DNA of 64,000 bases from Alphaproteobacteria bacterium (GCA_965262615.1 OZ253545.1:480001-544000); one strand, 5' to 3'; numbered from the stretch's first letter, positions 6,433-64,000 are shown. The notes: generated by a model not told the origin, from the letters alone. Numbers and translations: made by a program.

Positions 6433-7123
6433 CACCATTGTGACACGCACTGTGGATGATTGGACGGTGCAATTGAAAATGGCGTTTGACGGCGAAGGAT
6501 ACGCATTGTCGTCAGTGACGGGCGTGGCTCTCGCCAGTGTTGTGCCACAGGTGACGCACTGTTGGAAGATGGTGAGTCACCAATTGTTTGCCATTGAGCC
6601 GTTGTGTGTGGATGGCACATTGAGTGTTCTGCCTCAGATGGAGCTGGAGCATCCCGAGTCGGTGGGCGGCGATCGCATTGCCAATGCGGCGGCGGCGGCG
6701 GCGTTATACGATTTGCCCGCACTCATCATTGATTTTGGCACTGCCACCACTTTTGATGTCATCAATGGCGATGGCGCGTATCTCGGCGGCGTGATTGCTC
6801 CTGGACCTTTGTTGTCGCTGGATGCCCTCATCAAAGCGGCGGCGCAATTGAGTGATATTCCGTTGGAATTTCCGCCCGCCACCATCGGACGCAACACTGC
6901 TCATGCCATGCAGGCGGGGCTCATGGGGGGATACTTGGCGTTGCTGGAGGGACTCATTCGTGCTATTGATGCAGAAGTGGAGGGAAAACTCTCCGTGATT
7001 GCCACAGGAGGGCTCGCCAGCCTGTTTGCATCAAGAACGCAGCTGATTGATGACTATCATGAGCATGTCACATTATATGGTATTTACCAGTTATATTGTT
7101 TGAATGATCACAATGTTCACTAG
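6344..7123 (+). CDS. coaX: type III pantothenate kinase
   Basis: MILAIDVGNS, ASVVP, GGDRIAN, IIDFGTATTFD, VIATGGLA; GGAG upstream of ATG 6344. Confidence 0.93.
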   Translation: MILAIDVGNSHSVLALFSDEGRMVHHWRFATIVTRTVDDWTVQLKMAFDGEGYALSSVTGVALASVVPQVTHCWKMVSHQLFAIEPLCVDGTLSVLPQMELEHPESVGGDRIANAAAAAALYDLPALIIDFGTATTFDVINGDGAYLGGVIAPGPLLSLDALIKAAAQLSDIPLEFPPATIGRNTAHAMQAGLMGGYLALLEGLIRAIDAEVEGKLSVIATGGLASLFASRTQLIDDYHEHVTLYGIYQLYCLNDHNVH

Positions 7124-47957: not shown

Positions 47958-48680
47958 CTAACTTAACGATTGTATAGGGGGCATCTCATCATATGTTCTG
48001 CCGTTCAAAAGCCTCCCCGTTAAATCCTTGCGAACGCCGCCCCATTGCTTGAAGAAAAATTTAACCTTGCTTTTTCTGCACTGCTTGCGGATAGACTCCA
48101 CCCAAGCTTTTCGCATCAAGCGAGCTCCCGTCCCCGACTCGCCGCCGACAATCACCCAATCAATGCCATTTAACTGAAGGTTTTCACAGTGACCAATCAA
48201 AGGCTCACAAGATAAAAAGCGCACATATGAAGGCACATGGTGCAAATCTTCTATCCTGTTATAAACGCTTTCATCCTCTACACTGACACCCATCCAGATG
48301 TTTGGTGTCCAAGTCAATTGCAAGGCATACGCCCTCAACCGAGAGCTTCTTTTTGTGAGAATTTGAAATGTGTGTTGCGGACATTCATTCATGGTCGCAA
48401 ACACTTTTTGAATGAATGACAAAGGCACTTCGGGATGAAATAAATCACTCATGGAATTGACAAAAACAATTCTCCCCTTTTTCCATCTTTTCGGCAGGTC
48501 AATTAAATCTTCGTGCAAGGTGACATCAAAGCCGTTGCGATAGCGTTTATTGCCCATGACATGCAATCTGGCAGCCATCCGATGAGCATAGCAATTTTTG
48601 CACCCCGCGGAAATCTTGTCGCATCCCGTCACTGGATTCCAAGTGACTTCCGTCCATTCAATTTTTGACAACGATGCCAT
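47958..48680 (-). CDS. phage Gp37/Gp68 (DUF5131) three-Cys radical SAM-like protein
   Basis: IEWTEVTWNPVTGCDKISAGCKNCYA, FVNSMSDLFH, SCEPL, VGGESG, FFKQWGG. Confidence 0.92.
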   Translation of the reverse strand: MASLSKIEWTEVTWNPVTGCDKISAGCKNCYAHRMAARLHVMGNKRYRNGFDVTLHEDLIDLPKRWKKGRIVFVNSMSDLFHPEVPLSFIQKVFATMNECPQHTFQILTKRSSRLRAYALQLTWTPNIWMGVSVEDESVYNRIEDLHHVPSYVRFLSCEPLIGHCENLQLNGIDWVIVGGESGTGARLMRKAWVESIRKQCRKSKVKFFFKQWGGVRKDLTGRLLNGRTYDEMPPIQSLS

Positions 48681-48683
48681 AAA

Positions 48684-49571
48684 TCATTCCCCCAAATTCA
48701 GTGACAGCTGTTGCCCTGATGATTCTTGGGAGCGTTCTCTCGGCTTAATAATATTATGCCGAGCTATGTTTTTTGCTATCTCAATAGCTCTAGGATTTTT
48801 GCTCCCAACACAAAAAATAAATTCAAACATGGCACTGTTTTTATCAGTTTTAAAAGTCTTGCTTTCCTCAAGCAATCTATTGCCAAATAAACTACGCAAT
48901 TGGTTTTTATAAAGATTGAGTATGCCCCTCACCCCTTCATCCATAATCACTTCATCATCGCCAAAAACATTTTGCTGAGGGTTGGTTTTATAAAAATTCT
49001 GCCAACTATTTCCACCAAAAATAAGCGTGAGTTTTTCTGCCCAAGTAGAATCAACATCCTCTGGCTTTTTTGTTCTAGGAATGATACGGGAAATTGCCAT
49101 GATTGGAAACAATATCCAAGTATCCAAAGCTTCATAGCTGGCAACTTCTTTCAAAGTAGAAAAATTCAATTGAGTCGCAAATGGATCAATAAACAGCACA
49201 CCTCTGTATTTTTTCCAATCTCTATTGAGATTTTTCAAAAACTCATTGGCATCTCCTTGAGAAATCTTTACACGCTCTTCATGGCCAAATCGTCCCTTAA
49301 GCCGTGCATGGGCTTCTATTTTCCACTCATTAAAAAGCAATTCATCAAATTGCCTATCTTTAATATCCAAAGCTATTTTTGGAGACCCCTTGATAAATTT
49401 TGACACACCGTCAGACTTTAACGGGACATATCCTGGTCCCGCAAAAGCATCTATGTAAATTAGACGAAAATACCGCCCTTTTTCGCTATTCAGCACTGTC
49501 GTGTATGCATCAAGATACTTGCCGAGTATCTTCAGCTTTTCCTCTGTCCATTCGCCACCGTATTCTTTCAT
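48684..49571 (-). CDS. tcmP: three-Cys-motif partner protein
   Basis: WTEEKL..L.KYL, YIDAFAGPG, GSP, GDAN, FIDPF; adjacent to DUF5131. Confidence 0.88.
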   Translation of the reverse strand: MKEYGGEWTEEKLKILGKYLDAYTTVLNSEKGRYFRLIYIDAFAGPGYVPLKSDGVSKFIKGSPKIALDIKDRQFDELLFNEWKIEAHARLKGRFGHEERVKISQGDANEFLKNLNRDWKKYRGVLFIDPFATQLNFSTLKEVASYEALDTWILFPIMAISRIIPRTKKPEDVDSTWAEKLTLIFGGNSWQNFYKTNPQQNVFGDDEVIMDEGVRGILNLYKNQLRSLFGNRLLEESKTFKTDKNSAMFEFIFCVGSKNPRAIEIAKNIARHNIIKPRERSQESSGQQLSLNLGE

Positions 49572-49830: not shown

Positions 49831-51354
49831 ATGAAACTTCAGGATGCTTTGAAAGAGGCTTCTAAGGCTCTTTCTATTGATTCTCGTTATGAGAACTACA
49901 TTGGCGGCAAGTGGGTTGCTCCCGTTAAAGGTCAGTATTTTGATAATCCCAGCCCTGTTACCGGCAAGAAAATGTGCGAGATCGCGCGTTCGACGGCTGA
50001 GGATATTGAAAAAGCCCTTGACGCAGCCCATGCCGCTAAGGATGCGTGGGGACGCACATCCACCACCGAGCGCTCGAATATCCTCAACCAGATTGCGCAA
50101 CGCATGGAGGATAATCTCAAGTTCTTGGCGTTGGTTGAGACTTGCGACAATGGCAAGCCCATTCGCGAAACCACTCTTGCGGACTTGCCGCTGGCGATTG
50201 ATCACTTTCGCTATTTTGCGGCTTGCATTCGCGCTCAAGAAGGAAGCATTTGCGAAATTGATGATAAGACAATGGCTTATCATTATCACGAACCCCTTGG
50301 GGTGTGTGCGCAAATCATTCCTTGGAACTTTCCACTGCTGATGGCGACATGGAAACTCGCTCCTGCTCTTGCGGCAGGGAACTGCGTTGTTCTCAAGCCC
50401 GCCGAACAGACACCCATGAGCATCATGATCTTTGCCAAACTGATTGAAGATCTGTTGCCCCCTGGTGTGCTCAATGTGGTCAATGGCTTCGGTGTTGAGG
50501 CTGGCAAGCCGCTCGCTTCCAGTGAACGCGTTGCCAAAGTCGCCTTCACGGGCGAGACCACAACGGGACGACTCATCATGCAGTATGCTTCGGAGAACAT
50601 CATTCCTGTCACGCTGGAATTGGGAGGAAAATCACCTAACATTTTCTTTGCCGATGTCATGGACGAGAATGATGAGTTCCTTGACAAGGCGTTGGAGGGA
50701 TTTACCATGTTTGCTCTGAATCAGGGTGAGGTATGCACATGTCCTTCTCGTGCGTTGGTGCATGAATCCATCTATGACAAGTTCATGGACAAAGCCATTG
50801 CTCGGGTCAAGAAAATCAAGCAGGACAATCCCTTGCTGGATGACACCATGCTTGGCGCACAAGCTTCCAATGATCAGTATGAGAAAATCCTCTCCTATTT
50901 GGACATTGGCAAGAAAGAGGGCGCAAAGGTCTTGACGGGCGGCAATGCCAAAAAAATGTCGGGCGAACTGGCGGATGGCTACTACATTGAGCCAACTGTC
51001 TTTGAAGGCAAGAACGACATGCGCATCTTCCAAGAGGAAATCTTTGGCCCGGTGGTTTCGGTCACCAAGTTCAAGGATGAGGATGACGCACTTGCCATCG
51101 CCAATGACACGCTCTATGGCTTGGGCGCGGGTGTTTGGACTCGCAGTGTGCACAAGGCGTTCAACTTCGGTCGTGCCATCAAGGCGGGACGAGTCTGGAC
51201 CAATTGCTACCACCTCTATCCCGCTCACGCGGCTTTTGGTGGATACAAAAAGTCAGGAGTCGGCAGAGAAAACCATAAGATGATGTTGGATCATTATCAG
51301 CAGACCAAAAACACATTGGTCAGCTATGATCCCAATCCGATGGGATTCTTCTAA
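49831..51354 (+). CDS. aldB: aldehyde dehydrogenase (AldB/ExaC type)
   Basis: [37 protein letters not shown]; GGAGG RBS. Confidence 0.93.
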
Positions 51355-51363
51355 AGGCAATCA

Positions 51364-51398
51364 AAGGGTCACCGTTGTCAATGATGACGGTGACCCTT
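51364..51398. other. intergenic stem-loop (mRNA stabiliser or weak terminator)
   Basis: AAGGGTCACCGT/ACGGTGACCCTT 12-bp perfect stem; no U tract. Confidence 0.65.
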
Positions 51399-51422
51399 GT
51401 GCTTGGGAGAGGAGAATAAGTT

Positions 51423-51842
51423 ATGCGTTCTAATGAAATTCCTCGCGTTTCTTGTAGTGATGATGCCGCGCATCTCATTCGTGAGTTGCAGCAGCAGCAT
51501 GGGGCGTTGATGTTTCATCAATCGGGCGGCTGCTGTGATGGCTCTGCGCCGATGTGTTATGGCAGTGGTGAGTTCAAGGTGGGACGGCAGGATGTGTATT
51601 TGGGCATGATTGAAAACTGCCCTGTGTATATGGCGGCTGACCAGTTTGATTACTGGCGGCATACCCACCTCACCATTGATGTGGTGGAGGGGCGCGGTCA
51701 GGGGTTTTCTCTGGAAGCCCCTATGGGCAAGCGATTTTTGACCCGCTCGCGGGTGTTCTCTGATGAGGAAGCCACGCACCTGCAAGCGATGGGGGAGCCG
51801 CCGCGCGGTGATACTCATCCCCCTGAGGCGGTGATGGCGTGA
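51423..51842 (+). CDS. DUF779 family protein
   Basis: MFHQSGGCCDGSAPMC, HTHLTIDVV.GRG..FSLE; usual partner of aldB. Confidence 0.92.
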   Translation: MRSNEIPRVSCSDDAAHLIRELQQQHGALMFHQSGGCCDGSAPMCYGSGEFKVGRQDVYLGMIENCPVYMAADQFDYWRHTHLTIDVVEGRGQGFSLEAPMGKRFLTRSRVFSDEEATHLQAMGEPPRGDTHPPEAVMA

Positions 51843-51884
51843 GGCGCGTCACATTATTTTGTTTTTTGTTACTGATTTCGTATC

Positions 51885-52349
51885 ATGGATGACATAGAAC
51901 TGTATGCGGGTTTTTTTCAGCGATTTTTCGCGGCGGTCATGGATGTGATTATTCTTGGCTTTGTGACCTTCATTGCGGCAGCCAGTTTTTTCCCTGAATG
52001 GTTGCTGGTGAATCATGACTGGCAGCGCATGATGACCGAGCCCAATCCTGACATCATGCTTGACCCGTTTATTTTTCATCCGATGCACTTTGTGCTTCCT
52101 GCGCTGTATTACATTGGGTTTTATGTGTCGCGCTGGCAGGCGACTGTGGGGATGCGGATGATGGGAATTTACATCACCAACATGGAGGGCGGACGCATCA
52201 GCATCATTCGGGGTTTGCTGCGCCATGTGGCGGAGTTTTTGTCGGCATTGCTGTTTATGATTGGCTATTTGCTGATTCTCGTCACCCCCAAACGCCAGGC
52301 GTTGCATGACATGATTGCCTCCACCACGGTGCGGCGGGGCGTTTTATAG
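51885..52349 (+). CDS. RDD family membrane protein
   Basis: YAGFFQRFFA..D, QATVG, KRQALHDMIA.T.V. Confidence 0.9.
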   Translation: MDDIELYAGFFQRFFAAVMDVIILGFVTFIAAASFFPEWLLVNHDWQRMMTEPNPDIMLDPFIFHPMHFVLPALYYIGFYVSRWQATVGMRMMGIYITNMEGGRISIIRGLLRHVAEFLSALLFMIGYLLILVTPKRQALHDMIASTTVRRGVL

Positions 52350-52357
52350 GAGTTTTG

Positions 52358-52825
52358 ATGATGGCTCAAACATCTCATTATGCGTCTTTTTGGCAGCGTC
52401 TGGGGGCGGGGGTGATTGATGTGATCATTGTGGTGATTGCCTACGATGCGATGGCGGCATTCACCGTGCTGGGCATTGAGTGGGAGCGGGAACTGGAGGG
52501 CTTGCCTCCCATGGCTGTCCCCATGAGTGATGCCGCGTCTTTTTATCTCAACCTTATTCTCTCCGAGATTTTTTTGCTGGCGTATTTTGTGATTTTTTTG
52601 TCATCATCACGCCGTGCCACACTGGGCATGGATGTGTTTCGCTTGACTTTGGTGGATGAGGAGTCGCAAAAAGCGGTGACATGGCAAAGGGTGTTGCTGA
52701 GATATATCTCCATGACTTTTTCCATTGCCTTTTTGTTCATCGGTTTTTTGATGATGCTGTGGACGCCCAAACGCCAAGCACTCCATGACCGTCTGGCGAA
52801 CACAGTGGTATTACAAAGGGCTTAA
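52358..52825 (+). CDS. RDD family membrane protein (tandem paralog)
   Basis: YASFWQRLGA..ID, ATLG, KRQALHDRLANTVV. Confidence 0.9.
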   Translation: MMAQTSHYASFWQRLGAGVIDVIIVVIAYDAMAAFTVLGIEWERELEGLPPMAVPMSDAASFYLNLILSEIFLLAYFVIFLSSSRRATLGMDVFRLTLVDEESQKAVTWQRVLLRYISMTFSIAFLFIGFLMMLWTPKRQALHDRLANTVVLQRA

Positions 52826-52856
52826 TTGGCGGGTGGCTTTGTGATATAAGCCGTTC

Positions 52857-53864
52857 ATGACTCTTATTATTCCATCAAGCTCATCGTGTCTGTCACCCGT
52901 TCCTTACGACAATGAGGCGGCGTTTGAAAAAGACATTGTGAAGCATTATCCCCTGTTTTTTGGTGAAAAGACGCTGTTTATTCCCAAGAGAAAAATCAGT
53001 GGCGGAGCATTGGGTAACACCATTCCCGATGGCTTTTTGTTTGATTGTCGTGATGGTCAAAATCCGCGCTTTTACATCGTAGAAGTGGAATTGAGCCACC
53101 ACTCCTTTAGCCATATTCGTAGTCAGGTTGATAGGTTTTTGAATTTCTTTAACAGAAGGGAAATTCATGGCTTGGTTGGAACAATTTATAACACTGTTCA
53201 TAACGACAAAGAATTGAAGCAGAGATGGAATTCCTATTGCACTGGCGATATGCACCATTTGATGACGCGTAGCATTCAAGACCGTCACGGTATTCTTGTG
53301 CTTTTTGAGAAGAAAAATGATGATTTGGAAGAAGCGTTTGATGAGCATGGTGGGCTTTATGATTTATGGGAAAGGAAAGTGCAACGGATATTTATTCAAA
53401 AATATCAAGATGGTGATGATGTATTTTTTCACCAAGAAGGTGGGGTTGGTCAGCAAGAGATGAGTAATGTTTCAAGCAGTCGTAGGTTGCCTGAAACAGA
53501 GGAAGAGCATTTGCGTGTGTGTTCGCCGTCTACACGCGAGACTTATGCAAAAATAAAAGCCATGTTTCTTGAAAATGGTTTAGAGCAAAGAGTTGTTGGT
53601 GCTTACATTGGCTTTTGGATTAACGGCAGGCGGCGTGTTAAAATGTTTCCTCGCAGGGATTATTTTCATGTCTATGTTTTGCATGACGACTACAAATATT
53701 TCCATGATGGCGACAATGGGGATAGACACGCTCAATTGAAAAGCGTGGTGACACCATATCAGGTCATGTCGCCCAATGAAGGACACGACCATTTCTATCT
53801 AATCTTGGACAACGCCGACTACATGGACGCATTGCGGGCTTATATTCAGCCCGTTTTGTCTTAA
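52857..53864 (+). CDS. putative PD-(D/E)XK nuclease with C-terminal DUF5655-like domain
   Basis: YDNEAAFE, IPDGFLFD..FYIVEVELSHH; C-terminal half paralogous to 54671-55069. Confidence 0.65.
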   Translation: MTLIIPSSSSCLSPVPYDNEAAFEKDIVKHYPLFFGEKTLFIPKRKISGGALGNTIPDGFLFDCRDGQNPRFYIVEVELSHHSFSHIRSQVDRFLNFFNRREIHGLVGTIYNTVHNDKELKQRWNSYCTGDMHHLMTRSIQDRHGILVLFEKKNDDLEEAFDEHGGLYDLWERKVQRIFIQKYQDGDDVFFHQEGGVGQQEMSNVSSSRRLPETEEEHLRVCSPSTRETYAKIKAMFLENGLEQRVVGAYIGFWINGRRRVKMFPRRDYFHVYVLHDDYKYFHDGDNGDRHAQLKSVVTPYQVMSPNEGHDHFYLILDNADYMDALRAYIQPVLS

Positions 53865-53949
53865 TTCACCTGACGGCTTGCCTTCGTCAATCGTTCTCGC
53901 GATTGATACCAACGAAATTTTTGACTACCATGAACACTGAGCAGGAATT

Positions 53950-54495
53950 ATGAGTGAAACATTCACCATCACACGCACCGAGCAACGAGGCGAAGCCACA
54001 TTGGGCATGATGACTGACGAGAACGGCGCGGCTTTGTGTTGGACGCTTGAGGATTTGCAGCGTGCCGAAAAGATGGGTGGCGAGACCGCAATCCCTGTGG
54101 GGCGTTATGAGTTGATTGCTCAAAGCGAGAGCAAATTCATGGGTGTCTATCAGACGAAGATGGAGGGGTGGGGGATTTCTCATCCTTTCATGATTGAGTT
54201 GGCTGATGTGCCTGATTTTCGCTACATTTTGATCCACTGCGGCAGAACGCACGGCAACACCAAAGGCTGCATTCTGGTGGGTGACAGCAATTGCGTGAAC
54301 TACAAAGGATATGCAGAGGTGAGGGGCAGTTGGCAGGCATACAAGAGGATTTATCCGTTGCTTCGTGATGCGGTCAATGGCGGCGGCGGCTGGATTCAGA
54401 TTGTCAATGAGGTGCGAGGTGAGGAGGGGCTCACGCCACCCGACGACTCACATCCGCCAATCTTCGGCACACCAGACCGAAAAAATCCGAATTGA
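53950..54495 (+). CDS. DUF5675 family protein (phage-associated)
   Basis: TLG, CWTLED, GETAIPVGRY, DVPDF.YILIH.G...TKGCILVG. Confidence 0.82.
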   Translation: MSETFTITRTEQRGEATLGMMTDENGAALCWTLEDLQRAEKMGGETAIPVGRYELIAQSESKFMGVYQTKMEGWGISHPFMIELADVPDFRYILIHCGRTHGNTKGCILVGDSNCVNYKGYAEVRGSWQAYKRIYPLLRDAVNGGGGWIQIVNEVRGEEGLTPPDDSHPPIFGTPDRKNPN

Positions 54496-54635
54496 GAGAC
54501 ACGATTATTTTTATTTAGTCGTGGACAACACTGACCACATGGACGAGTTGCAAGCTCTCATGCAACCCGTCTTGTCTTAAGCCACCAGACGATTTGCCTC
54601 TGCCAGTCTTTGGTGCGTAAGTGCGAAAGTTTTTT

Positions 54636-54664
54636 TTGATTATGTGGCTTTTTAGTGCTACAAT
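54636..54664 (+). promoter_or_regulatory. sigma70-type promoter, probably leaderless
   Basis: TTGATT-17 bp-TACAAT with extended TG; ATG follows 6 nt after the -10. Confidence 0.6.
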
Positions 54665-54670
54665 CAGTCC

Positions 54671-55069
54671 ATGAACAATTTGAGCGAAAAAGAAATTTCT
54701 CACTTGCAAGAGTATCCAAAGTTCGTGCGCGCCATTTATGCAAGGGTGAAGGAGTGTGTTGACGAAAGAGGTTTGATTCCACGCGTAACAAAAGACTACA
54801 TCGCTTTTAGAAACGACAGAAATGTAATTGAAATGTATTTTCGTCAGGAATATATCCATTTCTATGTTTTGCATGACAATTATAGGTATCGGGATACAGC
54901 CAAAGTGCCAATGCGGGATGTTGAGCAGAAGAAGGATCGCATTGCAAGCATGGTTCAATCGTATGAAATTGAAGAACCCAACGAGGGACACAAGCATTTC
55001 TATTTAATTGTGGACAACGCCGACCACATGGACGAGTTGCGAGCTTTCATGCAACCCGTTTTGTCTTAA
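54671..55069 (+). CDS. stand-alone paralog of the 52857 C-terminal (DUF5655-like) domain
   Basis: Shared E..HL, YI.F, YVLHD.Y.Y, PNEGH.HFYL..DNAD.MD.LRA..QPVLS. Confidence 0.75.
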   Translation: MNNLSEKEISHLQEYPKFVRAIYARVKECVDERGLIPRVTKDYIAFRNDRNVIEMYFRQEYIHFYVLHDNYRYRDTAKVPMRDVEQKKDRIASMVQSYEIEEPNEGHKHFYLIVDNADHMDELRAFMQPVLS

Positions 55070-55074
55070 GCCAA

Positions 55075-56076
55075 ATGAATCTTTACGGGTCTTATCGTAA
55101 ATTATTGGCGAACAGCAAACACGCCGTTATAGCTGCCATTGAGATATACAACAAACCCAAATTTGAATATCGGGAAGAGATTTTTACAATATTGATTGCA
55201 ACAGCGTGGGAACTCTTCATCCTTGCTGTCTTGTCAAAAAACAAGCAACGCGTATTCGCTCCCAAAAAAAGGCACGAGGAATATAGAACACTATCCTTTG
55301 AAGAAGCCATAAGACAGGCAAAAAAGTATTTTCCTAAGGAAAAGTCACCTGATGCTGTCATTAGTAACATTCGTTCATTGAGAGCATACAGAAACACAGT
55401 GGTGCATTACTATCAGAAAGAGCAGAACAAACATGCAGTATACATGCTAGCCCATGCGTCTATCATGAATTACAGAGATTTATTGCTATCAATTTTCAAT
55501 CATGATATTGCCAGCGAAGTGAGTATTGTATTGTTGCCACTTAGCTTTAACCGCCAGCCAAACTTTGTTGAGTTTTTCAAAAAAACGCAAAAGAGAAATT
55601 TTACTCCATTCGTGAATGATCTTTTTACATCTATGCAAGCATTGGAGTCTATCAATGGTGTTGACACAAATCGCTTTATTACGGAATGTGTCATTAGAAT
55701 AGAGCCAGCTAATAGCATAAAGACCGCTGATGTTATAGTTAATGTCAAAGGTGGAGATGCTGAACATGTCGTTTTGAGGGACATTGATCCCGATGATAAA
55801 TATCCTTTTTTTCGGAAAAATATTATTGGTGATAAAAATACTCAAGTTCACAAAAATTTGAAACGCGGAATTAATTCATACCTGTTTCAAATAATTGTGT
55901 GGAAGTATTCTATCAAAAAAGACAGAAAGTATTGTTGGGCATCAAAAAAAGGTGGTTCGCCAAGATATTCCCAAAACATGATTAATTTTTTAAATAATCT
56001 TACTGACAATGAGATTGAAAGAGCGAAGGAAGAGTATAGGAATTTTCGGCAGAGAGAAAACTTAAAAAAGGTTTGA
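55075..56076 (+). CDS. DUF3644 family protein (HEPN-like)
   Basis: LL..S..A..AAIEIYNKP..YREE.F.IL...AWEL and an RNTVVH (RxxxxH) motif; AT-rich. Confidence 0.8.
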   Translation: MNLYGSYRKLLANSKHAVIAAIEIYNKPKFEYREEIFTILIATAWELFILAVLSKNKQRVFAPKKRHEEYRTLSFEEAIRQAKKYFPKEKSPDAVISNIRSLRAYRNTVVHYYQKEQNKHAVYMLAHASIMNYRDLLLSIFNHDIASEVSIVLLPLSFNRQPNFVEFFKKTQKRNFTPFVNDLFTSMQALESINGVDTNRFITECVIRIEPANSIKTADVIVNVKGGDAEHVVLRDIDPDDKYPFFRKNIIGDKNTQVHKNLKRGINSYLFQIIVWKYSIKKDRKYCWASKKGGSPRYSQNMINFLNNLTDNEIERAKEEYRNFRQRENLKKV

Positions 56077-56136
56077 AGAAATGAACAAAGCCGACCACAT
56101 GGACGAGTTGCAAGCCCTCATGCAACCCGTTTTGTC

Positions 56137-56952
56137 TTAGGCAACCTGACGGCTCACCTCTGCCAGTCGTTCTCGCGCCAAATTACAATAGTTTTCATCA
56201 ATTTCCATTGCGATAAAATGCCGTGCATGAACTTTTGCCATCACTGCGGTTGTGCCACTGCCACACATGGGGTCACACACCACATCGCCCTCATTGCTGA
56301 AACAACACAATAAGTCCGATGCCAGCGCATCGGGGTAGGTGGCGGGGTGCTTCATCTTGAGGCGATTGCCCTCTGTGTTGCTGGTGGCATAATTCCACAC
56401 CGTGCCGCGGCATTTTTTGTCATTCACCTTTTTTGGAGCAATCACCTTAAAGCCCCCATTTGTGAGTCTGTCCGTGCCGCTATAGGTTTTGCCGGCGTGT
56501 TTGCTGGCGATCATCAAATGCTCTTTGTGAAACACGCGCGGGCGCGCGCCTCGCAAAAACAACAAAATATATTCATGGTCTACACGAAACCGTCCGTTCC
56601 ACCACGCCCCCGGATTGCCATGACGCTGATAAATGCAACACTCAAACAAACGCAAATCCGTTTCATCCACCCAATTGACCGCCAGCCGAAAGGATGTCAG
56701 AGACTTGGCAAAATCCTTTGTGCCATCGCCAATCACCACCGCCACCACGCCGCCATCTTTAGTGATTCGTGCCAGCTCCTTGCCCAACGCCGTATAATCC
56801 CAGCTCCAGTCGCCGTTGTAATCACGAATTCCATCGTAGGGCGGTGAGAACAGGGTGAAAGAAATTGATTCATCAGGCAGCTGCGGCAACAATTCCAAGC
56901 AATCGCCATGCATGATGGCATCTCTCATCTTGGGGGGGATTTTTTTCGTCAT
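56137..56952 (-). CDS. site-specific DNA methyltransferase (beta class, N4C/N6A)
   Basis: GDCLE, FSPPY, HEY, HPATYP, DPMCGSGTT. Confidence 0.92.
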   Translation of the reverse strand: MTKKIPPKMRDAIMHGDCLELLPQLPDESISFTLFSPPYDGIRDYNGDWSWDYTALGKELARITKDGGVVAVVIGDGTKDFAKSLTSFRLAVNWVDETDLRLFECCIYQRHGNPGAWWNGRFRVDHEYILLFLRGARPRVFHKEHLMIASKHAGKTYSGTDRLTNGGFKVIAPKKVNDKKCRGTVWNYATSNTEGNRLKMKHPATYPDALASDLLCCFSNEGDVVCDPMCGSGTTAVMAKVHARHFIAMEIDENYCNLARERLAEVSRQVA

Positions 56953-56959
56953 GCAGTCG

Positions 56960-57526
56960 TTATCCGCCTTTCATGCGGCGCAATCGTTTTTCTCGCAGCT
57001 CGGGGTCTTCAAAGATGCGATTTTTCAAAAGCCACAGTGCGGTGCGTTCCCACGATTGGTCGCTGTTGCCGCGCAAATCGGCAGAATGTTGCTCCAGCAA
57101 TTGCTCGGTGTTGGCATCACGCATATAGACGGTGATGCTCATAATCAGATTGCTCACCTTATGCACCAAACACCCCAGCGAGTGAGTGGCATTGATGGCG
57201 CGCGCCAGCTTCGCCTCACAGCCGTTGCAGGTGCTGATGATGCCGTCTTTTGCCAGCCGTGCATACGGGGAATCCACCGTGGATGCTTGCGCGCCCGAGA
57301 TGGTGGTGTAGCGCGCGTCCTTGTCATAGCCCTCGGTAATCAATTGCGTGACGCGATCCAGACGCTTTTCTTCCTGCGCCTTTTGAATGGGGTTGGATGC
57401 GCCCGAGGTGTCAAACATCTCACAGCGAAAAATGGCGATGGTGCGGGTGTCCTCACCGAACGCGCTGGATGACGGCAAGACGGCAAGCACAAGTGCGGCA
57501 AGGCATAGATGGCGAATATGGTTCAT
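56960..57526 (-). CDS. DUF3280/DUF2380 family exported protein
   Basis: Signal peptide; CNGCE, VHKVSNLI, SADLRGNSDQSW.R. Confidence 0.8.
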   Translation of the reverse strand: MNHIRHLCLAALVLAVLPSSSAFGEDTRTIAIFRCEMFDTSGASNPIQKAQEEKRLDRVTQLITEGYDKDARYTTISGAQASTVDSPYARLAKDGIISTCNGCEAKLARAINATHSLGCLVHKVSNLIMSITVYMRDANTEQLLEQHSADLRGNSDQSWERTALWLLKNRIFEDPELREKRLRRMKGG

Positions 57527-58017
57527 GTTTCTGCTCCTTTGAGGGCGATGGTATCAATGGCTTTTTTGAGTGACAAGGGGTCATCTAGGTTTGGCAGTTG
57601 GATTGAGCCGCTGCCCACATCATTGATGCGAATGGTGCCGTAGTCCAGCATGCGCCCCATGACCGATTGCGCGACATTGACCTCGGCGATGCGTCTGGCG
57701 GCGATTTCTTCCATGCGGCGAGAGACGAGTCCTGTTTTGTAGATGATGCGGCGGTCGGAGATCATCACATGGGTGCTCCACTTGATGGCGCGATTATCCG
57801 CCGCCAGCAGCACGCACGACACTCCCATGATGAACAGAAAATGGTCAAGAAACGGACGCCCATCCGCCACATCAACATAAATCGCAAAAAACGCAATGAT
57901 GGCAAGTCCCCCATAAATCTGAAACAACACATCATAAAACCAATGAAAGCGCGCACTATAGATGATGCGCTCTTCGGGTTGGCGAATCTGCTCAAAATAC
58001 TCAGCTCCCTCATTCAT
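57523..58017 (-). CDS. bacterial PH-domain (bPH_2) membrane protein
   Basis: Two TM helices; RIIYKTGL, V.QS..GRMLDYGTI. Confidence 0.85.
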   Translation of the reverse strand: MNEGAEYFEQIRQPEERIIYSARFHWFYDVLFQIYGGLAIIAFFAIYVDVADGRPFLDHFLFIMGVSCVLLAADNRAIKWSTHVMISDRRIIYKTGLVSRRMEEIAARRIAEVNVAQSVMGRMLDYGTIRINDVGSGSIQLPNLDDPLSLKKAIDTIALKGAET

Positions 58018-58075
58018 GGGATGAGTGTAGCAGTGAAGACACCAATAAGAAAGGTGGTTGTGGGGTGCAAGGTTC

Positions 58076-58666
58076 TCACACCACCACTTTTTTTTCGTCT
58101 ACTTTATTAATTTTCTCACGCCGAACTGATACAGCTTTTTCAACCAATTGCGGCAACTGATTATTATAAGCGGCAACTTGTTCGCCAGACCAGGTCACAT
58201 ATTCTTTGAGCAGTTCCAATTTCTGCTCAAAATCTTTATTTAATTTTTTAGGATTTGAACAATCATCAGAGTCAAGAGGGTACGAGATAGAAATCCGCAC
58301 TTTATCGCCCACCACCTCGCCAGGGCAACCAAGCATGGTTAATGTGGGTGTTTGACATTCAAAAAGCCAATACTCACCTTCAAAAGGGATATCGGCATTA
58401 TATTGCACTCCATCCACAGAGGGATAGTGATGGTATATTGAGTGACGAGACATCTCAATTTTTGTTTCCTTGCCGTCATGCTTTTCTATTTGTTCTTCAT
58501 GAAGAACAAGAGGCTCAATTTTTAATGGAGCGACGATGCCGTCAATGATGGCTTTGTCATTTGAGCTTGAGAATTGATCTCTAGGAATTTTCTCTACCAT
58601 AGAGGCAATTTTTTGCTTTCGTTGTTCAATCTGCGCATACAAATAGCGTTGCCTGAAAAGTGTCAT
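58076..58666 (-). CDS. hypothetical protein
   Basis: 196-aa AT-rich ORF with AAGGAG RBS; no motif recognised. Confidence 0.65.
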   Translation of the reverse strand: MTLFRQRYLYAQIEQRKQKIASMVEKIPRDQFSSSNDKAIIDGIVAPLKIEPLVLHEEQIEKHDGKETKIEMSRHSIYHHYPSVDGVQYNADIPFEGEYWLFECQTPTLTMLGCPGEVVGDKVRISISYPLDSDDCSNPKKLNKDFEQKLELLKEYVTWSGEQVAAYNNQLPQLVEKAVSVRREKINKVDEKKVVV

Positions 58667-58701
58667 TTCTCACTCCTTGATTTTTGAGTTTGAAGAAAAT
58701 T

Positions 58702-58785
58702 TTAACCGCGACGGCTTTTGCCGATGTAGACAGTCTCGCGACCCTTTTTCAATCTATAGACTTTGGTGTCCTGTTTTTTAGGCAT
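58702..58785 (-). pseudogene. truncated GIY-YIG-like ORF (27 aa)
   Basis: AAAGGAGG RBS then MPKKQDTKVYRLKKGRETVYIGKSRRG*. Confidence 0.55.
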
Positions 58786-59118
58786 TATGCCCTCCTTTGC
58801 TGTTAATCTTGAACCAAATACTAGATATTATATGTTGCTGGAACAAAATGTCAATATCTTGTGGTGAATATTTTGTATTGCAAATCCGATGGCGTGGCAA
58901 TGACTCAATCTTGTTTTTTCTTGTTTGTGGGCGTATAGTGACGGTGCAAAAGTTACCATAGTCTGATTTCTGCGCGAGCAGAGGTCGGGTTACCTGCTGA
59001 ATACAAGACCTAATGGCGAAATAGGGGAATAGGCAGGTGTCTCACGCTGCGTTGTGTGTTACACGCGGTGCGGCAGGGATCTTACGGTGGCCCGACGCTG
59101 TCATCACATAACAAAATC

Positions 59119-59246: not shown

Positions 59247-60698
59247 TCAGAGACCCTCTTCTGCAACAATGCGCTCTGCCAGTGAGAGAGCCTCATATTC
59301 ATTGTTGGAGTGATTGAAAATCATCGCCACAATTTTTCTTCCATTAGAATTAGGGTGCCTCCCCTCCATTTTAATGGGCACACTAAAGTTGTTGCTGACT
59401 AATTTTTTCAAATGACGAGTCTCTTCACACATAGGCAAGTGAGCTGAATTGATTTTTGCATGAAAGTCTTCTATCTGAGACTCCAATTTTTTTCTCAAGT
59501 CACCCTCAATCAAACCTTTTTCAATAAGGTTCATACAGCCAATAAAATAGGAAGCTCTCTTTTCAAAGTTACGCAACATATTGCGCTCTGAAGATTTGGA
59601 ACGACATAGACGCGCAATAGCCCTACCGTTAAGCTTAAGTCTGCTTACAAGCTCTCTATAAAAAGCGTTATTTTCGAAATTATCGCGGCTACCGTTTGGG
59701 ACAAGCCGTTCATCAATAATATGAATTTCACCAACACACCAGCTATTGAACCGTTCCTCAGGAAAAATGTCCAATAGAATTCTATTATCACCTACCTGTA
59801 TGTTTCCACAACGGATTCGCAATCCAGCAATGCTTTGATTATGCTGTAGTGAGCCAAAGTAATTATGATGAGCGATCCAACCCACCGCCGCTAATTGGTC
59901 GCCATGACCCGGAATTTTTATTGTTTCCAGTTCCGTAAAGGAATCTTTCAATTGAGAAGAAAGAGAAAACTTATTACGAAACGGACGACAAATTGGCTCT
60001 TCTGAGTCATTCAGGTAAATTGAAATTCCACTGACATCAACATGAGGAGATAAAAATTCATTTATATCACGATGAAATTTGAATTCAGAAGCAAAGGGCA
60101 CTGGCGCGATTTGCTCCAAAAATTTCTTGACTGCATCCTCATTGAGTAGAATGTCATTGCCGTGGCGGATGACATCATGCAAAGTAACTTGAAAGAAAGA
60201 TTCATCTGAAGGGTCGCAAGATTCTTGAGAAAAAGAAGTGGCTTTTTTTACAAGGCTTAAAGCATCAATGCTATCATCGCTTGACATAAGAAGCTTACTA
60301 AAATGGACAACATCCCAATCAAAATTGCTTATTTGACCCTCACCAGCCGCCTTTGTCTTGAAGGATAGACGCTTGCAATAACCAATTCCAGAAAGCCTCC
60401 CAATTCCCCAAAGCCCACGCGATGACACCATATATTTTTTTGAGCTGCATCCAAGCCCCGTCATACAGGAAAGGAAATTTGCATTGGTAATTCCGCTCCC
60501 ATTGTCCCTAATGCTTACCATGCGCTCTGATTGATCAATAAAAATATCTATGCGAGGCTCAAAACGGTTATTGTCCTTACGAGCATCATCAACGGAGTCA
60601 GCAGCGTTTTGGATATACTCTCTGTAAAGCAGGAGAGGATTGCCATACATAGCTGTTGTGACAAGGCGCAGGATATTTTTGCCGACACGAGCATTCAT
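59247..60698 (-). CDS. GHKL (HATPase; MORC/HtpG-like) ATPase
   Basis: YREYIQNAADS, IRDNGSG, RGLWGIGRL; S5-like second domain GEIH...L.PN.SRD.FE. Confidence 0.85.
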   Translation of the reverse strand: MNARVGKNILRLVTTAMYGNPLLLYREYIQNAADSVDDARKDNNRFEPRIDIFIDQSERMVSIRDNGSGITNANFLSCMTGLGCSSKKYMVSSRGLWGIGRLSGIGYCKRLSFKTKAAGEGQISNFDWDVVHFSKLLMSSDDSIDALSLVKKATSFSQESCDPSDESFFQVTLHDVIRHGNDILLNEDAVKKFLEQIAPVPFASEFKFHRDINEFLSPHVDVSGISIYLNDSEEPICRPFRNKFSLSSQLKDSFTELETIKIPGHGDQLAAVGWIAHHNYFGSLQHNQSIAGLRIRCGNIQVGDNRILLDIFPEERFNSWCVGEIHIIDERLVPNGSRDNFENNAFYRELVSRLKLNGRAIARLCRSKSSERNMLRNFEKRASYFIGCMNLIEKGLIEGDLRKKLESQIEDFHAKINSAHLPMCEETRHLKKLVSNNFSVPIKMEGRHPNSNGRKIVAMIFNHSNNEYEALSLAERIVAEEGL

Positions 60699-62272
60699 GA
60701 GTCATCGCTCTCTTCTGCAATGCCAGCATCTTCGACTCGCTCATCATCTGGCAATGACGGCAAGTCTTCGGCAACTTTAATCGCTTTCATTTTTTCCCAA
60801 ATATCCATCTCTTCTTGAGAACTTACCTTACGGTAGAAATGATGCAAGTCTCTAATTTTCTTATCAGCATGATTGAACAATCTTTCTTCACGCTCCTTAC
60901 TGTCTCTCGTATCAAGCGCGGATTTTAGATCGTCTTTTTGAGACGGTGATAATTTTGAAAAGTGAGTACAAAATTCATCATACTCTTCTCTGCCACCGTA
61001 TTGGGTGTACCATGCTCGATTAAAGGTATACACATGCGGCTGAAAAAGAAGGTCTTCAAAATCATCATAGCTATCACCAAAGGCTGTTTTGAAAAACGCA
61101 GGATTGCCACTCACAATGCCATGGGTTGCTTGCAGGATAATTTGCATGGAGCGTAGCCAGTAAATGTTCCATTTTTCCCCGACATAACGGCGGTGAGGCT
61201 GATTGGTGGGCTGATAGCGCATAGGAAAGGAAAAAATCCTGATTCCTAACTCTTCATTGAGAGCCACATTGAGGCGCATCCGAGCAAAAAGGTCTTGAGG
61301 GCTATCGTGGAAATTATAAAGCATATAATTTGAAAGCTCAGTAATGCCAGCATCAAAGGCATAGCGGACCGCTTGTTCATAGGGTTTGCGTAATCCTCCA
61401 TGATCAAAGGCAATGCGTAATGGCTTAATGCAAATGGTTGCCATTTCCTGTAGAAAATGAGGTGATTTGCAAAGAATACGGGCATCCACGCCTTGATTAA
61501 AGTCCACACGGCGTTGTAATGAGCGTCCATTTCTTTTTAGTTTTGCACCCGCTTGAAATCCAAGATCGCGTATTTCAGCTATAATTTCCTTATAGCGTGG
61601 GGCAGCTGTGACATTGTTGTCCATCAAAATGAGGTCTTTCTTCTCGCCGTAGAGCTCAGCTACGCCATCAATAATGCGGCTCAATGATTGCGTTTCGCGC
61701 AAATCCCCTTCTAGTTTCGGAACACCACAAAAAGAACATTTACGAGTACAGCCCCGAGAAGCATAGGTGAAATAAGCATCCGATACAGGATATTGATAGT
61801 CAATGTGGTCAAGAATGCTGTAATCAGGGACATGGTCTTCAATGGGCGTTCCTTCTGTGTCATCGGCATAAAGGTCATTGGAAAAATGATCCAGCTGCAA
61901 TGAGGTTGCCGGATCCTTATCCAAAAGACCTTGAATAAAGCGCACGCCACTCCAGCGTGGCTCATCGGTGAATCGCTCGCGCATGAGAGAGGCGGCAATG
62001 CCGCCGACAAAAACCTTGTCAGCATTGCCACCAACCGCCTTGAGAGCAAAGTCTATGGATGCCGCAATGCGTTTATACTCAAAAGAAAAAAGGGTCGTGA
62101 TATAAATGCGATCCCAATGTTTTTGCAACACGCTTTCATCCTCTCCCTTGATAAAGCACACATGGTCATTTTTGCCTCGCTCACCGTGATACTGAGCAAT
62201 TTTCATGAGCCCCAACGGCGGATACTTGTTTTTATAGCCGGGCTCAATCAGCAAGATGTTTTTACCAGACAT
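60695..62272 (-). CDS. radical SAM protein with N-terminal cobalamin-binding-like domain
   Basis: ILLIEPGYKNKYPPLGLMKIA, VFVGGIAAS, SRGCTRKCSFC (CxxxCxxC), LMDNN, VDFNQGVDAR; start set at MSGK. Confidence 0.85.
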   Translation of the reverse strand: MSGKNILLIEPGYKNKYPPLGLMKIAQYHGERGKNDHVCFIKGEDESVLQKHWDRIYITTLFSFEYKRIAASIDFALKAVGGNADKVFVGGIAASLMRERFTDEPRWSGVRFIQGLLDKDPATSLQLDHFSNDLYADDTEGTPIEDHVPDYSILDHIDYQYPVSDAYFTYASRGCTRKCSFCGVPKLEGDLRETQSLSRIIDGVAELYGEKKDLILMDNNVTAAPRYKEIIAEIRDLGFQAGAKLKRNGRSLQRRVDFNQGVDARILCKSPHFLQEMATICIKPLRIAFDHGGLRKPYEQAVRYAFDAGITELSNYMLYNFHDSPQDLFARMRLNVALNEELGIRIFSFPMRYQPTNQPHRRYVGEKWNIYWLRSMQIILQATHGIVSGNPAFFKTAFGDSYDDFEDLLFQPHVYTFNRAWYTQYGGREEYDEFCTHFSKLSPSQKDDLKSALDTRDSKEREERLFNHADKKIRDLHHFYRKVSSQEEMDIWEKMKAIKVAEDLPSLPDDERVEDAGIAEESDDS

Positions 62273-62279
62273 AGCCTTA

Positions 62280-63260
62280 TCAAGGTTCTTTCGCAAGAAA
62301 ATCATCCACTCGCTGTAAAGCGCGCTTGATCTTTCTGACGATAGGGGCACATTTATTGCGCTCTTGTTTTTGCATATCGGAATCCAGTGGCGCATTTGAC
62401 AAGCGGGAATTGACGCTTTTTAATGTTTTTTCCAAGGGTGACCTTTGTGAAAGCTCATAAGCTTCATCCAATGAAATCTCTCCCTTGATTAATTTTTGCA
62501 ACATTTTCTTTTTTTCTATAATAGTAGGCATCTTATTTCTGAGATCTTGTGTAGAAAAAGGAGGGTCATTTTTTATTTCTTTCAAAAGATACTTCTTAAA
62601 ATCTGCATTAGAAGCCATCTCGCTTTTTACAGCGCGACGCAGCACAATACCTTCGTAGTAGTGGCTAAAATGGGGCTTTTTATTGTCCCCATTTTCACGC
62701 ATCATTTTTATTGTTTCGACATAATTTTGAAGTTCAGACTTGCTTAGAGAGAACCTTATAACCATTTCTTCATAAGAAATCTTCTCTTCTTCTATTCTCC
62801 TATAAAGCTTGCCAGCAAGTTCATACGGGTCCCAGGGTGTCTTTCCCTCGGAATGCTCGAGATCAAGAAAAGAATCTATCTGTCTTTCACTAATATCTGC
62901 TACTACTTTGCAGCGGATAGATTCCCATTTGTGGGGATCTTTTTGATAAAGCAGGCGGTAAGCTGCTAAGCGCGAATTCCCTTCAATCACTTCCTTCTTC
63001 TTAAAATTAACAAAGATTGGATTTATCAAGCCTCCATGCTTATTGATACTTCCAACCAATTTTTTCTTGACATGGCTCTCACCTTGCAATTTGTGTTCTA
63101 TAACGACCTGCAGTTGGTCGTAGGGCAATTTCCGCTCATCATCAGATATCGAAGAATACACACGGGGGTTGTCAGGCAAATACCTGAGCTCATTAACATC
63201 CATAGATTGAATTTCAAAAGGAATCTCATCACCCAGAATGTGTATGTAGCTATCACTCAT
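62280..63260 (-). CDS. ParB/Srx N-terminal domain protein
   Basis: DNPR, SI..HGGLINPI.V, VIEGNSRLAA, W.PYE motifs. Confidence 0.78.
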   Translation of the reverse strand: MSDSYIHILGDEIPFEIQSMDVNELRYLPDNPRVYSSISDDERKLPYDQLQVVIEHKLQGESHVKKKLVGSINKHGGLINPIFVNFKKKEVIEGNSRLAAYRLLYQKDPHKWESIRCKVVADISERQIDSFLDLEHSEGKTPWDPYELAGKLYRRIEEEKISYEEMVIRFSLSKSELQNYVETIKMMRENGDNKKPHFSHYYEGIVLRRAVKSEMASNADFKKYLLKEIKNDPPFSTQDLRNKMPTIIEKKKMLQKLIKGEISLDEAYELSQRSPLEKTLKSVNSRLSNAPLDSDMQKQERNKCAPIVRKIKRALQRVDDFLAKEP

Positions 63261-64000
63261 TTCAAAAAATCATCCTCTAAGGTCATTTTCAAGAAATTCT
63301 CCAAGTCCGATTTTACATCAAAATCAAATGACGCGTCAAACTCTTTTTGATTTTGATCCCCTTGTGCCAATTGAGCTGCTTGATGCTTTGCTTTAAGGAG
63401 ACGAGCCGTCCACAGGTCAATGGTTTGATCGGCGATGAGGTTATGGACAAAACAATGTTGCTCTTGTGAAATTCTGTGAATGCGGTCTTGTGCCTGCAAA
63501 TAATCATCCAAACTGAAACTCCGATCATAAAAAATCGCATGATTAGCCACCGTTAAGGTGAGTCCCTCTTTGGCTGAGCCGGGTGTGGCAATGAGAATTT
63601 GGCAATTCTTGTCGCCCTTGAATTTTTGCACGGCATGGTGGCGTTCATCCATTGTTTTTTTGCCATGAATTTTTGCAACGCCATAATGTTTCAGCTGACT
63701 TGCCAGCCAGTCTGCATTTTTGATGAAGCTTGTCCACACAATCACTTTTTCATTTTGCATGGTGATTGTGTCCACCATTTTTTGCAGTTCAACAAACTTA
63801 CATGGAATCTCATCGTATTTATCATCAAAAATAAAAGGATTGGATGCACACTGCACGAGGCGCAAAAGCCCCTTGAGAATGTTGTTAATTGTATCCAGCA
63901 GAATATCATCCATTCTGTACATGAATTCATCTCTGTATTGGCGATAGATTTCCTCCTGCCGTGGCGCAAGAGGCACTTTATGCTCCCTAATCGTCTTTGA
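63257..64000 (-). CDS. SNF2-family helicase, C-terminal part (open to the window edge)
   Basis: LLRL.Q.ASNP, KVIVWTSF, EGLTLT.AN..IFYD, QAQDRIHRISQ, TID; no in-frame stop before 64000. Confidence 0.9.
   Translation of the reverse strand, partial: SKTIREHKVPLAPRQEEIYRQYRDEFMYRMDDILLDTINNILKGLLRLVQCASNPFIFDDKYDEIPCKFVELQKMVDTITMQNEKVIVWTSFIKNADWLASQLKHYGVAKIHGKKTMDERHHAVQKFKGDKNCQILIATPGSAKEGLTLTVANHAIFYDRSFSLDDYLQAQDRIHRISQEQHCFVHNLIADQTIDLWTARLLKAKHQAAQLAQGDQNQKEFDASFDFDVKSDLENFLKMTLEDDFLK

Follow-up and report, generated by a model that had tools for sequence, protein, structure and literature searches.

How does a row of single genes come to be parted by repeated copies of one and the same gene junction? 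This question is raised by the segment from position 52857 to 56952 of a stretch of 64,000 nucleotides (nt) from an Alphaproteobacteria bacterium (GCA_965262615.1 OZ253545.1:480001-544000). The whole stretch is called the window, and positions are counted from its first letter. The host has a streamlined marine genome of 1,542,258 nt (1.54 Mb) on a single contig, with a mean guanine-plus-cytosine content (GC) of 51.4%. At the locus four direct copies of a unit of 90–124 nt, R1 to R4, part five genes from one another: a nuclease-type gene (open reading frame 1, ORF1), a DUF5675 gene (ORF2), a short relative of the end of ORF1 (ORF3), a DUF3644 gene (ORF4) and a DNA methyltransferase gene on the opposite strand. 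Two RDD-family genes flank the five genes on one side and a DUF3280 gene on the other. In our judgement there is an even prospect that the locus is a pile of single defence-type genes, variable among strains and lodged in the overlapping 3′ junction between a nuclease/DNA-binding gene and a convergent methyltransferase gene. The best reading of its history, held with evenly balanced confidence, is repeated recombinational insertion with long duplication of the junction, followed by allele exchange between strains.

Repeat detection in the window returned one family with four direct copies of 119 nt, starting at 53777, 54493, 54982 and 56053. Copies 2 to 4 are 74, 70 and 63% identical to copy 1. 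When anchored on the stop codon of the + strand, all four align without gaps. A profile of the four copies matched only these four in the whole genome (E values from 1.5e-38 to 4.9e-29; next match, E 1.7), and a BLAST search with R2 returned R3 (87%), R4 (84%) and nothing else significant in the genome. The raw self-BLAST of the genome was dominated by giant repetitive genes and was filtered for this reason. The filtered result held 13 short direct-repeat pairs at a spacing of 0.4–6 kb, four of which came from the present locus, and the junction repeat was the only family among them with more than two copies.

Each copy consists of the overlapping 3′ ends of two genes. The + strand reads the final 15–25 codons of a nuclease-type gene (..HMDEL.A.MQPVLS, then the stop), the – strand the final 12–13 codons of an N4/N6 methyltransferase gene, and the two stop codons overlap. 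The + strand tails are ..YMDALRAYIQPVLS in R1, ..HMDELQALMQPVLS in R2 and again in R4, and ..HMDELRAFMQPVLS in R3, each closed by a stop codon. On the – strand, R1 reads RERLTKASRQVN, R2 HQRLAEANRLVA and R4 RERLAEVSRQVA, likewise up to a stop codon, the last being the genuine end of the methyltransferase. A preliminary description of this DNA had reported four direct repeats, each separating one gene, and had quoted tails on both strands with overlapping stops. The repeats were recovered as described and are unique in the genome, the quoted readings are correct, and the further copies that it had proposed to look for do not appear in the genome-wide profile search.

The copies differ in what they contain. 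In R1 (53777..53900) ORF1 reaches its natural end, and 43 nt left over from a methyltransferase 3′ end come next. R2 (54493..54616) joins a non-coding remnant of a nuclease-type tail, starting at about –90 relative to the stop codon, to a methyltransferase-tail remnant that again reaches +43. R3 (54982..55073) is the natural end of ORF3, since ORF3 is a stand-alone version of the C-terminal domain of ORF1; its homology ends 4 nt past the stop codon and the methyltransferase side is missing. R4 (56082..56176) comprises a 56-nt non-coding nuclease-type tail remnant (from –56) and then the genuine methyltransferase 3′ end. The earlier view of the repeats as copies of a nuclease/methyltransferase junction is thus right in kind and too uniform, as R3 holds only the + strand tail plus 4 nt and R4 only 56 nt of tail. 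Beyond these limits (left of R2 and R4, and in the spacers after R1 and R2 compared with the methyltransferase gene) alignments were no better than those of shuffled sequences. Given these limits, the duplicated sequence on either side of the DUF5675 gene is about 133 nt long, and that on either side of the DUF3644 gene about 60 nt.

Identity between copies amounts to 72–88% in the tail and 58–67% on the methyltransferase side, and the longest identical run shared by any two copies measures 9–23 nt. Recombination between the copies inside the present genome would therefore be inefficient, and the earlier suggestion that such recombination excises or shuffles cassettes loses its footing at identical runs of at most 23 nt. 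The remnant peptide DHMDELQALMQPVLS is common to R2 and R4, whose DNA differs there at three positions, all of them third-codon and silent; this fits descent from two once-functional gene ends. The pattern of substitutions suggests that both remnants diverged while they were still part of working genes.

The genes between the repeats fall into different families according to their family-profile matches. ORF2 (53950..54495, + strand, 181 amino acids, GC about 52%) belongs to DUF5675 (E 3e-23) and phrog_1501. ORF4 (55075..56076, + strand, 333 amino acids, GC 33–38%) matches DUF3644 (E 1e-33) and the restriction-endonuclease-like domain EC042_2821 (E 8e-11). It also matches the PADLOC candidate PDC-S19 with an E value of 1.3e-107 over residues 1–327, and it carries the sequence RNTVVH, fitting the motif Rx4-6H. 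PMC3710099 classes DUF3644 as a HEPN domain that occurs in restriction-modification operons. The N4/N6 DNA methyltransferase (56137..56952, – strand, 271 amino acids, GC 52%) is of the type II or orphan type and matches N6_N4_Mtase with E 2e-27. ORF1 and ORF3 have GC contents of about 41% and 41%, respectively. Given the different families and the differing GC, ORF2 and ORF4 are not decayed copies of the flanking genes; ORF3, unlike these two, corresponds to part of ORF1, as its paralogue or allele. The preliminary labels DUF5675, DUF3644 and methyltransferase therefore hold, as does the view that the spacers (GC of 41, 52, 41 and 33–38% from ORF1 to ORF4) are independent rather than decayed tandem duplicates. 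A frameshift joining the DUF5675 protein to the R2 tail was considered and rejected, because the tail lies in the +1 frame, whereas a shift at the A-AAA-AAT run would be –1 and would soon meet a stop.

ORF1 (52857..53864, + strand, 335 amino acids) itself had no match in Pfam, NCBIfam or PADLOC. Its AlphaFold model (predicted local distance difference test score of 78) shows a restriction-endonuclease-like domain over residues 17–200 or so. The closest structural matches of this domain are PaqCI (Z 8.3), NucS (Z 8.2), HamA (Z 7.8) and FokI (Z 7.2), and residues D58, E76 and E78 are invariant among 13 homologues. The N-terminal domain thus has a predicted nuclease fold of the PD-(D/E)XK type with conserved acidic residues, and the same label in the preliminary description is backed by the structural matches of the model, not by a Pfam match of the protein's own. 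The C-terminal domain is structurally similar to YdhG-like proteins (Z 8.4), and also to the part of T4 MotA that binds DNA (Z 6.8, with E 6e-3 in Foldseek). DUF5655 (PF18899) matches 3 of the 13 family members (best E 1e-6) and none of the window's own proteins, and the PADLOC candidate PDC-S18, to which ORF1 is distantly related, matches 5 of the 13.

ORF3 (54671..55069, + strand, 132 amino acids), earlier called DUF5655-like, is more correctly described as a stand-alone ORF1-type C-terminal domain, which is itself YdhG/MotA-like and DUF5655-like. It is 46% identical to the corresponding domain of ORF1 and represents a variant that also occurs in P0004 and P0006, two full-length homologues. 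Other metagenome contigs encode stand-alone homologues that share its N-terminus (P0131, 86% identity; P0132, 58%; P0133, 60%), so ORF3 is a real gene type and not debris. Other arrangements of the C-terminal domain occur among metagenome proteins. P0008 reads through the ..QPVLS end into 266 unrelated residues, and in P0135 and P0137 the domain order is reversed, with the C-domain first and a nuclease-like domain (DLVV...YEIK) second.

The two partners of the junction differ strongly in their distribution. The ORF1 family is tiny, with 10 proteins among 5.8 billion, and its profile matches 2 of the 401 genomes of the class, the host genome included. The methyltransferase family is huge and widespread, with 2551 proteins at E values of at most 1e-40, many of them 65–70% identical in other phyla. 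The pairing is consequently specific to the present lineage. What was proposed earlier as an ancestral nuclease-methyltransferase pair stands insofar as the repeats copy one convergent junction, and the pair itself is lineage-specific. The nearest methyltransferase relative, P0011, is 94% identical, and the ORF1 homologue P0005 only 61%; both lie on contigs of 56,915 nt. If this equal length means one and the same contig, it would be the nuclease side that varies, next to a stable methyltransferase partner. Alleles of ORF1 in related strains are only 55–79% identical, and their tails vary as the repeats do.

Further afield, a match to the locus at the DNA level was found in 0 of 40 related genomes of the same order or class. 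A scan of genome contigs returned a 33%-identical Aquimarina relative and nothing else. Of two metagenome scans, one gave no matches and the other 10 distant relatives of 25–38% identity, none of which was seen to have the repeat. At five inspected loci of distant ORF1 relatives, varied defence genes adjoin in four; the neighbours include a type I hsdR gene, a DUF3644 gene directly downstream (locus L011), type III mod/res genes and an Eco57I-like gene.

The stretch, whole or in part, is present in six public runs from two studies, of which four (X1, X2, X3 and X6) were used. Their contigs were aligned to positions 51000–59000 at a likeness of at least 80%, and all statements on strains refer to these contigs. 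Parts of the locus left uncovered in X1, X2 and X6 count as absent only where one contig bridges them. The gene sets at the locus differ among the contigs of all four runs, so that the variable cassette content for which the preliminary description had proposed to look is observed. In X1, a contig of 7270 nt (depth 95) carries an additional 1324 letters between the RDD gene and ORF1. Its alignment continues over ORF1 and ORF2 as far as 54486, is missing over ORF3 and ORF4, and resumes in the methyltransferase gene, about 1000 unaligned letters later. The 7163-nt contig of X2 (depth 109) runs from the RDD gene through 420 other letters to 54598–54695, which is the end of R2 and the region 5′ of ORF3, and then through about 390 unaligned letters to 56130 and onwards. 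The size of this last stretch fits the 142-residue homologue P0132. Judged from the alignment, the X2 contig appears to carry an ORF3-like gene directly against the methyltransferase gene, without ORF1, ORF2 and ORF4. In addition, shallow and short contigs of an insert-free form join an R1-type to an R4-type copy, from 53849 to 56126 in X1 (in register, depth 3.1) and from 53798 to 56126 in X2 (depth 6.4).

X3 and X6 possess an ORF1 allele in which the middle of the C-domain is of the ORF3 type, with joints from 53644 to 54863 and from 54944 to 53817. One X3 contig is identical to the window over R3, ORF4 and R4 (54906–56202). In X3 and X6 the 30 letters before position 52816 match the methyltransferase side of R2 at 22 of 30 and that of R1 at 21 of 30 positions (hand count), so ORF1 is preceded there by another junction copy. 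A second variable spot lies nearby: contigs of X3, X6 and X1 depart from the window at 58068 and return at 58907. An ORF at 58076–58666 on the – strand matches the first half of the PADLOC candidate PDC-S54 (E 8e-32, positions 6–191 of 410) and, to go by this match, may be a truncated defence gene.

The extra junction copy in front of ORF1, which lies in the loose end of the X3 and X6 contigs, could also belong to an old tandem array of paralogous units, each made of a promoter, a C-domain gene and a junction, in which two gene bodies were overwritten by the DUF5675 and DUF3644 genes so that 90 and 56 nt were left. In such an array ORF3 would naturally be a paralogue or allele of the ORF1 C-terminal domain with its own natural tail. 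The regions 5′ of ORF1 and ORF3 are alike over 30 nt (z 3.3; the score was reached by 3 of 300 shuffles), the R2 and R4 remnants differ at silent sites only, and at L011 a DUF3644 gene does directly follow a distant ORF1 relative. We nevertheless regard this history as unlikely. It requires two separate and precise overwriting events, it meets strains in which an ORF1-type or ORF3-type tail directly adjoins the methyltransferase, and in other strains the ORF1-type and ORF3-type C-domains act as alleles within full-length proteins. Moreover, it still needs the insertion of foreign genes, and its main difference from insertion with junction duplication is the order of events.

The repeats, their coding origin, the unrelated inserts, the lack of matches to the recombinase and transposase families searched and the variation between strains are observed directly, whereas we infer the route of recombination and the order of events in the preferred history of insertion and allele exchange. 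New genes would have entered by host recombination and not by a dedicated cassette recombinase, through illegitimate joining, through joining anchored on one homologous side, or through insertion with long target duplication. Each insertion would have left the junction duplicated, over about 133 nt at the DUF5675 gene and over about 60 nt at the DUF3644 gene. Later homologous exchange between diverged strains would have swapped single genes along with their junction copies; such exchange would account for copies that are only 63–88% alike and yet free of insertions and deletions, with the old frames still open. The junction copies would leave both flanking genes intact. They would probably also give each unit a terminator hairpin and provide short homology for later gain, loss and swapping. 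A tentative extension of this history, which we think possible and rather doubtful, is an integrase-free portable landing pad, in which any single defence gene between two junction copies is moved among strains and is gained at, or lost from, whichever copy is resident, by host recombination. In a bolder version, the ORF1-type nuclease with its MotA-like domain would itself make a break at the hairpin in the end of its own gene.

Several points weigh against insertion with junction duplication and later exchange. The recombination route itself is reached only by inference. The flanking copies are 74% (R1/R2) and 85% (R3/R4) identical, as against mostly more than 90% in published cases, a low likeness that obliges one to add allele replacement as a further step. 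The end at +43 is common to R1 and R2, and the extra copy in other strains matches that same stretch; the common boundary could mark a defined site, or a single old event that was later copied. The three inserts have one orientation. ComEC is present, which does not by itself establish natural competence. The contigs with an "empty junction" are short, have a depth of 3–6 and are possibly assembly chimeras. About 1000 letters of the X1 contig and 420 of the X2 contig lie outside the alignment, and the strains are compared through contigs aligned at 80% or more.

All four copies contain a hairpin; the preliminary description had given an imperfect hairpin for copies 2–4 and an alternative stem for copy 1. 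Each hairpin ends immediately 5′ of TTTTGTCTT, and a T-rich run follows. Folded as RNA the hairpins have energies of –9.5 to –14.3 kcal/mol (z –1.6 to –3.7); as DNA their z scores are –0.5 to –2.7. The hairpin of R1 (53834..53854, + strand) has a GCGGGCT/AGCCCGT stem followed by TTTGTCTT, and that of R2 (54542..54571, + strand) reads GACGAGTTGCA-N8-TGCAACCCGTC. R1, R3 and R4 were called terminator-like. The weakest hairpin is that of R3, and ORF4 begins 5 nt past the stop codon of ORF3. Taking the four copies together, pairing is found in 38 of 40 cells; five pairs are invariant and three vary on one side. No pair is altered on both sides, a result of little power with four sequences; the covariation for which the preliminary description had proposed to look is thus not seen. 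As an intrinsic terminator or RNA end, the hairpin is accounted for no less well than as a feature of recombination.

It is on these hairpins that one could build the view of a single co-adapted defence operon of five genes, in which the repeats are kept as terminators, RNA-stability hairpins or regulatory sites and mobility is incidental. The hairpin and T-rich tract stand at the same place in each copy, three of the four are terminator-like, the weakest is the one whose next gene follows after 5 nt, and the gene families are linked to defence. A terminator, however, needs about 35 nt and not 90–124 nt with a frame-preserved remnant of a methyltransferase tail. The gene content differs among strains, terminator-like sites in the region are not above the level of shuffles (8 versus 6.7), and Rfam gave 0 matches over 52000–58000. 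An operon held together in this way is highly improbable as the explanation of the array. Promoter-like sites were found before ORF2 (53903–53931) and before ORF3 (54636..54664, + strand; TTGATT-17-TACAAT, with TG), the 3′ part of the latter resembling the region 5′ of ORF1.

The hairpin has a second possible meaning, that of a site for an enzyme, akin to the integron-like reading of the preliminary description. If the cassettes were truly site-specific, the imperfect 11-8-11 inverted repeat would mark the junction repeat as an att-like site, cut by an enzyme acting in trans, at which circular one-gene cassettes integrate and excise. Candidates for such an enzyme are an unrecognised recombinase, XerC/D or an ORF1-type nuclease through its DNA-binding domain, by comparison with integrons, pdif modules and SCC (staphylococcal cassette chromosome) elements. 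The discrete repeat with an inverted repeat in every copy, the identical right boundary of R1 and R2, the single gene per unit in one orientation and the differing cassette content of the strains would all suit a system of this kind. Against this, PF00589 has two matches in the genome, one lying about 123 kb and the other about 510 kb away from the array. Both tyrosine recombinases have XerD/XerC as best NCBIfam matches, and they reach 123 and 106 bits with the integron-integrase models, for which the cut-off is 265. Resolvase (PF00239), Y1 (PF01797), rve (PF00665) and DDE_Tnp_1 (PF01609) have 0 matches each in the genome, which through PF00239 also holds for a serine recombinase of the Ccr type. 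Among the ORFs of at least 110 amino acids scanned from 38.7 to 64 kb there is none of a mobility family.

A regular expression for attC ends (RYYYAAC...GTTRRRY, as this motif is commonly given) found 0 occurrences on both strands of 52800–57000, with a mean of 0.9 in shuffles, in agreement with the earlier remark that canonical attC ends are absent and that no integrase is near, the XerC/D-like recombinases being at least 123 kb away. The repeat core had 0 matches in viral contigs, and further copies are lacking in the genome as well. The left and right limits of the duplication vary with the insert, and the hairpin has no compensatory pairs, with only four sequences to compare. A candidate dif site, a 28-mer at C1:1089089, has a canonical XerD-type arm and coincides with the maximum of the cumulative GC skew (1,088,000). 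Xer/dif mimicry was rejected since the inverted repeat of the junction shares, by eye, no arm with this 28-mer. An integron was rejected for want of an integrase and attC ends, for the differing duplicated lengths (about 133 and 60 nt) and for the absence of compensatory changes in the hairpin. A site-specific cassette system is consequently improbable. Of the "integron-like capture site" the site-specific mechanism is not supported, as integron integrase, attC ends and fixed duplication lengths are all missing; the idea of capture survives as a homology-guided analogue of an integron.

Other features of the window are mentioned for completeness. The region 59247–63976 on the – strand (GC about 39–45%) encodes a HATPase_c_3 protein with a weak match to MzaB, a protein that weakly matches radical-SAM, one of unknown kind and a C-terminal helicase fragment; it is probably another defence cluster adjoining the array. 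The self-BLAST of the genome also revealed a direct repeat of 145 nt, 95% identical, at 5455–5599 and 6165–6309 (C1:485455 and 486165), 710 nt apart and within or between ORFs 5141–5887 and 6007–7123. An islet of low GC (37–40%) at 47958–49571 on the – strand, between a transketolase and an aldehyde dehydrogenase gene, contains a DUF5131 (phage Gp37/Gp68-like) gene and an unknown ORF of 295 amino acids.

How defence genes become nested in loci of the restriction-modification kind is largely unexplained, and the present locus preserves footprints of the process. If serial junction duplication is general, remnants of gene ends could reveal embedded defence cassettes and their insertion history computationally, and could serve as a tool to follow how genes come and go in streamlined genomes without integrases and transposases. 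The locus further puts a small and nearly unstudied nuclease/DNA-binding family beside HEPN and DUF5675 genes as candidates for phage defence. The portable landing pad, if true, would be a homology-guided counterpart of the integron and would also explain the embedding of defence genes in restriction-modification loci. Our literature searches for a repeated convergent-junction array found no description of one.

Several known systems resemble the array in part. Integron arrays, of which the sedentary ones carry defence genes, share with it the one-gene units, the single orientation, an imperfectly palindromic repeat of about 60–130 nt and the variable content. They differ by IntI and attC ends, both missing here, whereas the repeat of the present locus consists of two gene ends with varying limits and two of its units have promoter-like sites. 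SCC-type elements accrete in tandem at the 3′ end of rlmH, their boundary repeats restore the gene end, and some units are without a recombinase of their own. The tandem pile-up at the 3′ end of a methyltransferase gene with a repeat at each boundary is common to both. SCC, however, needs large serine recombinases of the Ccr type and a short core site; the present genome has no resolvase-family match, and the repeat is long and diverged. Neisseria has minimal mobile elements, whose conserved flanks allow gene cassettes to be swapped by homologous recombination, and Rhs/CdiA toxins have orphan C-terminal modules, displaced gene ends with a repeated conserved segment kept downstream. In contrast to these, the homology here is provided by a two-gene junction of 60–130 nt repeated inside the locus and not by the flanking genes, and none of the displaced pieces is a toxin tip.

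Among described processes, insertion with long target duplication comes nearest to the present case, and the preferred history would be a serial form of it and of the embedding of defence genes in restriction-modification loci. It was reportedly described for restriction-modification genes by Nobusato and co-workers in 2000. In the cases treated by Furuta, Abe and Kobayashi in 2010, the insert has no mobility gene and stands between long direct repeats (>30 bp) of variable length, for which other strains have one copy; a repeat may extend over the 3′ end of an adjacent gene, the copies are mostly more than 90% alike, and naturally competent species supply most cases (PMC2853133). The present inserts agree in being flanked by direct repeats of about 133 and 60 nt with no mobility family among the scanned ORFs. 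They differ from those cases in being single genes outside the restriction-modification families, placed inside a restriction-modification-like pair, and not whole restriction-modification units: DUF5675, C-domain and DUF3644/HEPN genes were found, not a restriction gene together with a modification gene. The same target was used at least three times, giving an array of four copies with one more in other strains, and the repeats are 63–88% alike. As for an empty site, the X2 contig (depth 109) lacks the DUF3644 gene between the ORF3-like gene and the methyltransferase gene, and the joins of R1 to R4 are shallow (3–6).

A further parallel is given by defence genes "embedded" in restriction-modification, BREX and DISARM loci, as set out in a preprint (bioRxiv 10.1101/2024.01.29.577857). 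DUF3644/PDC-S19 and PDC-S18-like proteins are families known inside restriction-modification loci. DUF3644/EC042_2821 HEPN proteins and PDC candidates are nested in such loci (10.1101/2024.01.29.577857, PMC3710099), and ORF4 matches PDC-S19. Since the terms "recombination", "duplication" and "direct repeat" have 0 occurrences in the available text of the preprint, the footprint of junction duplication and the serial stacking seen here would be an added observation on how such embedding may happen.

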